Source of the DNA: a virus
Lineage: Duplodnaviria > Heunggongvirae > Uroviricota > Caudoviricetes
Strand: one strand, 5' to 3'
DNA length: 13,333 nucleotides
IMG/VR virus record: IMGVR_UViG_2909309443_000008
Both the position numbers and the translations under genes were made by a program. Each line of letters opens with the position of its first letter. Within the stretch, counting starts at the first letter, position 1. Shown here piece by piece: positions 5,070 to 5,258 of this stretch. The notes under the pieces were generated by a model. The model searched no databases and was not told the DNA's origin. It saw only the letters and a program-made list of their open reading frames with translations.

Positions 5070-5258
5070 TGTTCATTCCACGGCCAAAAACAGAGAAAGG
5101 AAACGACAGAGGCCCAAAAGCTCGTTTTCAGCACCTGTCGTTTCCTTTCTTTTCAGGGGGTATTTTAAATAAAAACATTAAGTTACGACGAAGAAGAACG
5201 GAAATGCCTTAAACCGGAAAATTTTCATAAATAGCGAAAACCCGCGAGGTCGCCGCCC
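5070..5258 (-). other. cos: Lambda-type cohesive end site: cosN (5247-5258) plus cosB between cosN and Nu1
   Basis: Minus-strand sequence GGGCGGCGACCTCGCGGGTTTTCGCTATTTATGAAAATTTTCCGG... matches the lambda left-end sequence as recalled. It is preceded by ...GATCCGACAGGTTACG, the lambda right end, and sits ~190 bp upstream of the Nu1 start. Confidence 0.85.

Follow-up and report, generated by a model that had tools for sequence, protein, structure and literature searches.

A lambda-type cos site with a Nu1-family small terminase gene in a structural variant of the cryptic prophage DLP12

The reference for the packaging site described here is the cos region of phage lambda, whose complex cosB consists of R3, I1, R2 and R1 in that order, R2 being inverted and R3 and R2 flanking an IHF site (PMC9026076, PMC4669245). 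R3 occupies bp 50-65; TerS contacts bp 55-63, and packaging is sensitive to mutation of bp 56, 58 and 59 (PMC9026076, PMC4669245). R3 is the most critical of the R sites, and the distance between cosN and cosB is likewise critical (PMC9026076). Sites of this kind can be used from the chromosome. In the helper-packaging dilysogens of Feiss and colleagues (e.g. cos-lambda Delta[Nu1-...]), a chromosomal cos without a terminase of its own is served by a helper terminase in trans (PMC4669245), and helper packaging between chromosomal cos sites is a routine assay (Feiss et al. 2015, PMC4669245). The cos-type PICIs are small integrated elements with an integrase and a lambda-like cosN that depend on a lambdoid helper for capsids (PMC9026076, PMC6739421); they bring a replication module and a private cosB of their own, as well as Rpp, by which the helper TerS is retargeted.

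The cos-nohD remnant of the cryptic prophage DLP12 is itself already known, being annotated and described in K-12. Lambda geneticists have long regarded it as a nuisance source of cos+ recombinants, and it has also been used as a recombination substrate. In 1980, Fisher and Feiss reportedly observed that a lambda cos deletion mutant reverts via recombination with a defective prophage of K-12. The homology between lambda and Dlp12 extends over 3.35 kb and spans R, Rz, cos, nu1 and A' (De Paepe et al. 2014, PMC3945230). Ten of 19 lambda x Dlp12 recombination junctions adjoin cos, and all recombinants are viable, including those that acquired the Dlp12 nu1, so that K-12 nohD can replace lambda nu1 (PMC3945230). 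The authors suggest that terminase breaks at the lambda and Dlp12 cos sites stimulate the exchange (PMC3945230). Lambda-chromosome recombinants were also mapped to the DLP12 cos patch (Poteete et al. 2004, PMC545071), and a 5.5-kb DLP12 substitution is present in phage 434B (PMC9119081). As an indicator, E. coli C, which has no cosN-lambda, avoids recombination with defective-prophage DNA (Feiss et al. 2015, PMC4669245).

The stretch of DNA analyzed here (13,333 nucleotides, IMG/VR record IMGVR_UViG_2909309443_000008, hereafter the window) carries such a cos-nohD block. Compared with lambda, all cos subsites are present in the same order and with the same spacing next to a Nu1/gpA-like terminase region, whereas functional TerL, capsid and tail-shaft genes are lacking, R3 has a substitution at bp 54, and the single chromosomal cos has no partner. 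The Feiss constructs differ in that two cos sites lie about one genome length apart and a complete chromosome is excised between them; the window has one cos. Unlike a PICI, the element has a cosB of the helper's own type and encodes a Nu1 homologue itself; none of rep, pri, alpA and rpp is annotated in the genomes identical to it. Lacking a private cosB and annotated rep or rpp genes, it is therefore not a PICI. We consider it highly likely that the element is a DLP12 remnant whose lambda-type initiation site and TerS are intact in sequence, that a helper could recognize the site without being able to terminate there, and that it has stayed intact through youth and exchange.

Identity of the element and its relation to K-12 DLP12

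By gene content and order, the window is the cryptic lambdoid prophage DLP12 integrated at argU. The tRNA-Arg(tct) gene (argU, 12061-12137) is the sole Rfam match in the window and lies next to intD (10882-12045), which is 99.5% identical to K-12 intD. In the genomes that are 100% identical to the window over 4300-6000, the gene order is intD, rusA, ylcG, quuD, nmpC porin, essD, rrrD, rzpD, iss/bor, ylcI, nohD, tail-fiber fragments, appY and ompT, with nohD bearing that same label in the PGAP annotation. Blocks of the window are 98-99.5% identical to the DLP12 of MG1655, in which nohD (b0560) and 'cryptic prophage DLP12' are annotated; ylcI lies in one of these K-12-homologous blocks. The closest genomes match at ~100% over 13,024 bp, with a 1 bp difference over 13 kb.

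The element occupies the same site as in K-12, with argU/intD on one side and appY-ompT on the other, shares the late order from quuD to A', and is 98.2% identical to K-12 across the cos-nohD block. However, the internal deletion junctions of the K-12 type are not found in the window, and its sequence identifies the element as a structural variant of DLP12 distinct from the K-12 form. A' ends at lambda bp ~1017 in K-12 and at ~913 in the window, and its right-hand partner is tfaD in K-12 but the middle of a tail protein in the window. The window lacks ybcV, ybcW and the entire intD-rusA early region, whereas K-12 DLP12 has no counterpart of the tail-fiber remnants at 2106-4346. The two cos sites also carry different substitutions, at 48472 (C>T), 53 (C>T), 85 (T>A) and 187-188 in K-12, and at 54 (G>A), 134, 145 and 176 in the window.

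Several smaller structural features accompany these differences. At 10390-10880, where the K-12 early region from xisD through ybcO (including emrE and ybcK-ybcN) is missing, only ~0.5 kb with small ORF fragments separates intD from rusA. The nmpC porin gene (8095-9177, plus strand, 360 aa; 'ompC' in PGAP) is uninterrupted, in contrast to K-12 nmpC, which is split by IS5. Relative to strain 99-3165, a 1-bp deletion at ~6446 frameshifts the Rz homologue encoded by rzpD (6396-6809, minus strand). The ~100%-identical genomes are 1 bp longer (13,025 vs 13,024 bp), which fits this deletion. The frameshift probably also hits the embedded Rz1/rzoD, and it could be either a real pseudogene or a sequencing error. 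An IS1 element lies at the appY-proximal end of the window (1-700), and at the other end the segment 13025-13333 diverges from the closest complete genomes, matching IS1-bearing sequence at 90-94%.

The cos site, the terminase genes and the deletion junction

The coordinates of the packaging features are collected in Table 1. The window aligns with lambda cos over 381 bp (5040-5420) ungapped and at 98% identity, which bears out the preliminary description's account of a minus-strand cosN flanked by the lambda right-end sequence and by cosB. The cosN sequence occurs exactly once, and at one mismatch or fewer ~0.04 matches would be expected by chance in a scan of the window. In the alignment to lambda cos that had been proposed as a check, cosQ, cosN, I2, R2 and R1 prove identical and R3 differs at one position. 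Alignment and direct reading place cosQ just beyond the region originally reported, at the same distance from cosN as in lambda.

Table 1. Packaging features and neighboring elements in the window
Feature	Position	Strand	Description
Truncated tail protein ORF	3421-4365	-	314 aa; phrog_1419, E=1e-81
A' (gpA large terminase stub)	4334-4549	-	68 gpA codons, then NCY and two stops
Deletion junction	4346-4347		End of homology to lambda, K-12 DLP12 and phage cos-nu1-A
nohD	4524-5069	-	Intact Nu1-type small terminase subunit, 181 aa (ORF, Pfam, alignment)
cosB R1 CTGTCGTTTCCTTTCT	5094-5109	-	Identical to lambda
cosB R2 CTGTCGTTTCCTTTCT	5135-5150	+	Identical to lambda; inverted relative to R3 and R1
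I1 (lambda bp 66-108)	5151-5193	-	IHF-binding interval, R3 to R2; substituted at bp 73 (5186) and bp 102 (5157)
cosB R3 (lambda bp 50-65)	5194-5209	-	TerS binding site; 15/16 identical to lambda
I2 (lambda bp 13-49)	5210-5246	-	Spacer between cosN and cosB; identical to lambda, no indel
cosN GGGCGGCGACCT	5247-5258	-	12-nt cohesive-end sequence; sole exact match in the window
cosQ (GGGTCCT)	5282-5288	-	Packaging-termination subsite; lambda bp 48473-48479, identical
ylcI (DUF3950)	5458-5652	+	Pfam PF13132; lambda right-end side of cos; K-12 DLP12-homologous block

Relative to NC_001416, and in lambda coordinates, the window differs at 48486 (T>C), 54 (G>A), 73 (A>G), 102 (T>C), 134 (G>A), 145 (T>G) and 176 (T>G). 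Everything from lambda bp 48487 to 53 is unchanged, including the bases that flank the nicks in cosN. Indels are absent from bp -60 to +137 and from cosQ to R2, and since I2 in particular has none, the distance from cosN to R3 is preserved. The lambda residue G138, between R2 and R1, is missing from the window, and also from DE3, Turner, PhiR34_1, PhiR42_1 and K-12 DLP12; as all natural relatives examined are without it, the extra G is a peculiarity of the NC_001416 reference.

The arrangement in the window is that of a complex cosB, with R3, I1, R2 and R1 in order, R2 inverted, and matches to the IHF consensus between R3 and R2. The best of these matches in I1 to the consensus WATCAANNNNTTR (lambda bp 74-91, window 5168-5185) are kept unaltered, and both substitutions in I1 recur in the phage genomes PhiR34_1 and PhiR42_1. 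The sole difference in R3, bp 54 (window 5205), sits in the CGTTTCC core common to lambda R1, R2 and R3, just outside the TerS contact segment, while bp 55-63, including 56, 58 and 59, are unaltered. A literature search for published data on R3 bp 54 found none. Differences in cosN or cosB that abolish cutting had been named as the finding that would speak against a usable site, and none occurs at a position known to matter. All sequence determinants known to matter for the initiation of packaging are present in the window.

The small terminase subunit is equally well preserved. NohD is identical to lambda Nu1 at 178 of 181 residues (98%; differences K48R, A75T and L132I) and to K-12 NohD at 179 of 181, and it matches the Pfam family Phage_Nu1 (PF07471) with 336.7 bits against a gathering cut-off of 30 bits, covering profile residues 1-164 of 164. 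At the DNA level, eight differences separate the gene from lambda nu1, of which three change an amino acid and the rest are synonymous. The recognition helix (17-24) and wing (31-39) of lambda Nu1 (residue ranges from PMC9026076) and the C-terminal TerL-binding segment are identical in NohD. The earlier claims of an intact Nu1-type subunit, and of its ability to bind cosB, are thus upheld, the latter as a prediction from these conserved segments. On every count that sequence can address, the locus conforms to a lambda-type cos with a Nu1-family TerS.

The large subunit is truncated, as previously stated. The reading frame of A' overlaps nohD, its residues 1-68 match the phrog terminase large subunit, and it is annotated as an incomplete pseudogene. 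Homology to lambda A stops at window 4347. The ORF that crosses the junction is chimeric, its ATG and first ~6 codons consisting of gpA-derived DNA read out of frame, while its residues 6-313 match positions 474-793 of the 793-position phrog_1419 profile (the C-terminal 320). Its annotation reads 'phage head spike fiber domain-containing protein.' A single deletion therefore brought codon 68 of gpA up against the interior of a tail-fiber gene, fusing the two, and eliminated the genes for the head and tail shaft in their entirety. The window contains neither capsid nor tail-shaft genes. The preliminary description went further in declaring all morphogenetic genes absent; this holds for the capsid genes, but tail-fiber remnants, including a tail-fiber/endosialidase-chaperone protein, span 2125-4365.

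The junction recurs in only ~31-33 of the 5426 complete E. coli genomes, with 99.9-100% identity across it; human isolates are frequent among those listed, and several belong to O6:H16. Across DLP12 elements at argU, at least three independent right-hand truncations of gpA were observed, none derivable from another. In the clade of the window, gpA is truncated at codon 68 and fused to the middle of the tail protein; in K-12, it ends at ~codon 102 and is joined to tfaD; and in PK8276, an annotated 876-bp (~292-codon) stub is followed by IS1 and Rhs/VgrG.

Use of the site by a helper phage

Because the element has neither TerL nor capsid genes, the site should be inert alone. A lambda-like phage, whether superinfecting or co-resident, would have to provide a terminase of lambda specificity in trans. 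TerS and IHF would then bind cosB, TerL would nick cosN, and the DNA would be threaded from cosB away from cosN, that is, leftwards in the window via nohD, the tail-fiber remnants, appY and ompT, and onwards. To complete a chromosome, lambda requires a further cosQ-cosN roughly one genome length downstream. A motif scan found no second cos in the remaining 5.2 kb of the window, and none was found in ~50 kb downstream in two proxy genomes near-identical to the window, 99-3165 and FORC_031, on which this result rests (cosN at one mismatch or fewer, and the cosQ-cosN pattern); matches to cosN with two mismatches occur downstream in both at chance level. Without a terminating cosQ-cosN within a headful, packaging could start but not finish. 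Helper action is therefore expected to yield a chromosomal cut and abortive or defective packaging at best, not a transducible unit. The preliminary description, which saw in the region a packaging substrate for a helper, is in this respect half right: the determinants of initiation are all present, but the single cos leaves the substrate without a termination site.

The genomes 99-3165 and FORC_031 each contain only one place with a lambda-type cos-nu1, so that no co-resident helper of lambda specificity is present there; a few genomes of the clade have two. A literature search found no direct evidence of a helper phage cutting at, or packaging from, the DLP12 cos. The outcome that experiments in K-12 support is stimulated homologous exchange around cos with incoming lambdoid phages, for which DLP12 serves as a store of alleles of cos, nu1 and the lysis genes. 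In the ETEC-associated strains of the clade, the cos is likewise expected to recombine with lambda-type phages or cosmids, and remnants of this type more generally represent reservoirs of packaging-specificity alleles for phage mosaicism.

A more far-reaching role would be conceivable in strains with a second lambda-type cos, equally oriented, ~38-51 kb downstream. There, the DLP12 cos might direct packaging from cos to cos and so transfer the neighboring chromosome (appY, ompT, envY, nfrAB, cus and ent) at high frequency. The second site could be provided by a neighboring lambdoid prophage or by an incoming phage integrated by recombination at DLP12. If true, this would be the cos-phage counterpart of lateral transduction. 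We regard it as unlikely. In a weaker version, terminase might cut at the DLP12 cos in every lambdoid infection and so turn the site into a programmed recombination hotspot, at which DLP12 might continually refresh its cos-nohD from live phages and donate the allele back.

Persistence and functional state of the cos-nohD allele

The allele found in the window is not confined to truncated elements. The complete 48.7-kb genome of phage PhiR42_1 (PV340562.1) matches window 5060-5300 at 100% identity. From lambda 48427 through nu1 as far as the junction, it has all the substitutions of the window, the seven differences in cos among them; its nu1 is identical to the nohD of the window at the DNA level. 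PhiR42_1 encodes a full 641-aa A, W and the portal gene. PhiR phages serve as a plaque-forming panel of lambda relatives, and we infer the viability of PhiR42_1 from this use and from its record (stated host, complete genome). Among IMG/VR contigs, 79 carry the R3 bp 54 A allele, and in at least 10 prophage contigs it occurs together with a Nu1 that does not differ from NohD and with a 641-aa gpA, two of these being identical to the window across the whole 250-bp cos. In addition, an identical segment of 974 bp (4347-5320) is joined to a longer terminase gene in many complete genomes. Shared with PhiR42_1 and with prophages that have full gpA, the allele belongs to a circulating pool of working lambda-type packaging modules, and comparison with these relatives indicates that the cos-nohD allele of the window is very probably functional.

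This distribution bears on why cos and nohD are intact beside a truncated A. One explanation is that they have been kept by selection as a module, either as a proto-satellite or 'hitcher' through which a helper mobilizes DLP12 together with the neighboring ompT-cus-ent region, or as a decoy that diverts or titrates the terminase of invading phages. Defective prophages have been discussed as possible proto-hitchers (PMC11389934), the three DLP12 truncations (codons 68, ~102 and ~292) all fall inside gpA and spare nohD and cos, and the nu1 differences from lambda are mostly synonymous. The synonymous bias, however, is attributable to selection in live phages, which carry the identical allele. 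Alleles that match it at 100% adjoin terminase genes that are longer or complete, the annotation of the identical genomes includes neither a replication module nor rpp or alpA, cosB is of the helper's own type rather than private, and a terminating cos is lacking within a headful.

The position of truncations elsewhere also speaks against selection of this kind. With the R3 allele or ylcI as anchor, ~185 IMG/VR prophage contigs were surveyed, and junctions were scored where homology stops and the contig continues. Within the 546 bp of nu1, ~8-10 different ones were counted (cos coordinates 346, 421, 424, 426, 519, 584, 696, 698, 702 and 719) and ~10-12 in the 1.9 kb of A (879, 912, 958, 965, 1539, 1649, 2178, 2193, 2270, ~2360 and 2528). 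Truncated or fused Nu1 ORFs of 82, 101, 169, 174, 186, 191 and 477 aa lie beside an intact cos. Truncation of nu1 next to an intact cos is thus common, and nothing points to selective retention; with junctions at least as dense in nu1 as in A, the combination of cos, intact Nu1 and an A stub represents one decay state among many. Selective retention of cos-nohD was rejected on this ground, the density of nu1 junctions not being below that of A, and we consider it quite improbable. The best explanation for the intact module is that the remnant is young and still exchanges DNA with live phages; the identity of its allele to those still linked to longer or complete terminase genes marks the deletion as so recent that no decay would be expected yet.

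That the site is instead a dead relic, in which the substitutions in cosB (R3 bp 54, I1 73/102, the R2-R1 spacer) have destroyed recognition by terminase and precluded use by a helper, is very unlikely. The concern has a basis in the location of bp 54, inside the shared core and in the R site on which most depends. However, the same seven differences occur in the complete genome of PhiR42_1, the R3 allele accompanies full-length gpA and an identical Nu1 in the prophages counted above, and the positions of known importance (bp 56, 58 and 59, the 55-63 contacts and the cosN-cosB spacing) are unaltered. A chance resemblance or assembly artifact at cosN has practically no probability left and is already refuted by the identity to lambda over 381 bp, by 1.3 kb of collinear homology and by the same sequence in dozens of independent complete genomes.

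The junction survey also yielded several observations on the diversity of the region. The 477-aa ORF is an in-frame fusion of Nu1 residues 1-78, comprising the whole winged-helix DNA-binding domain, to a tail-fiber-like C-terminal region (IMG/VR L018, L022). Two tight clusters of nu1 junctions, at 421-426 (L018/L022, L030, L077) and 696-702 (L011, L020/L051, L085), each bring together three different downstream sequences within ~6 bp, and each may mark a hotspot of deletion or insertion. Homology ends at +34, +41, +45 and +69 were considered as cosB deletions, a reading that was rejected, as they are mosaic boundaries to other cosB/TerS types. A common ylcI-cosQ-cosN-I2 part is followed by one of at least four unrelated cosB sequences, the boundary falling between I2 and R3, and the Nu1 homologues beyond these boundaries are only 36-56% identical (e.g. 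L127, L141, L193, L099, L176). Lambda and phage 21 share cosQ and cosN, with which such a mosaic boundary fits.
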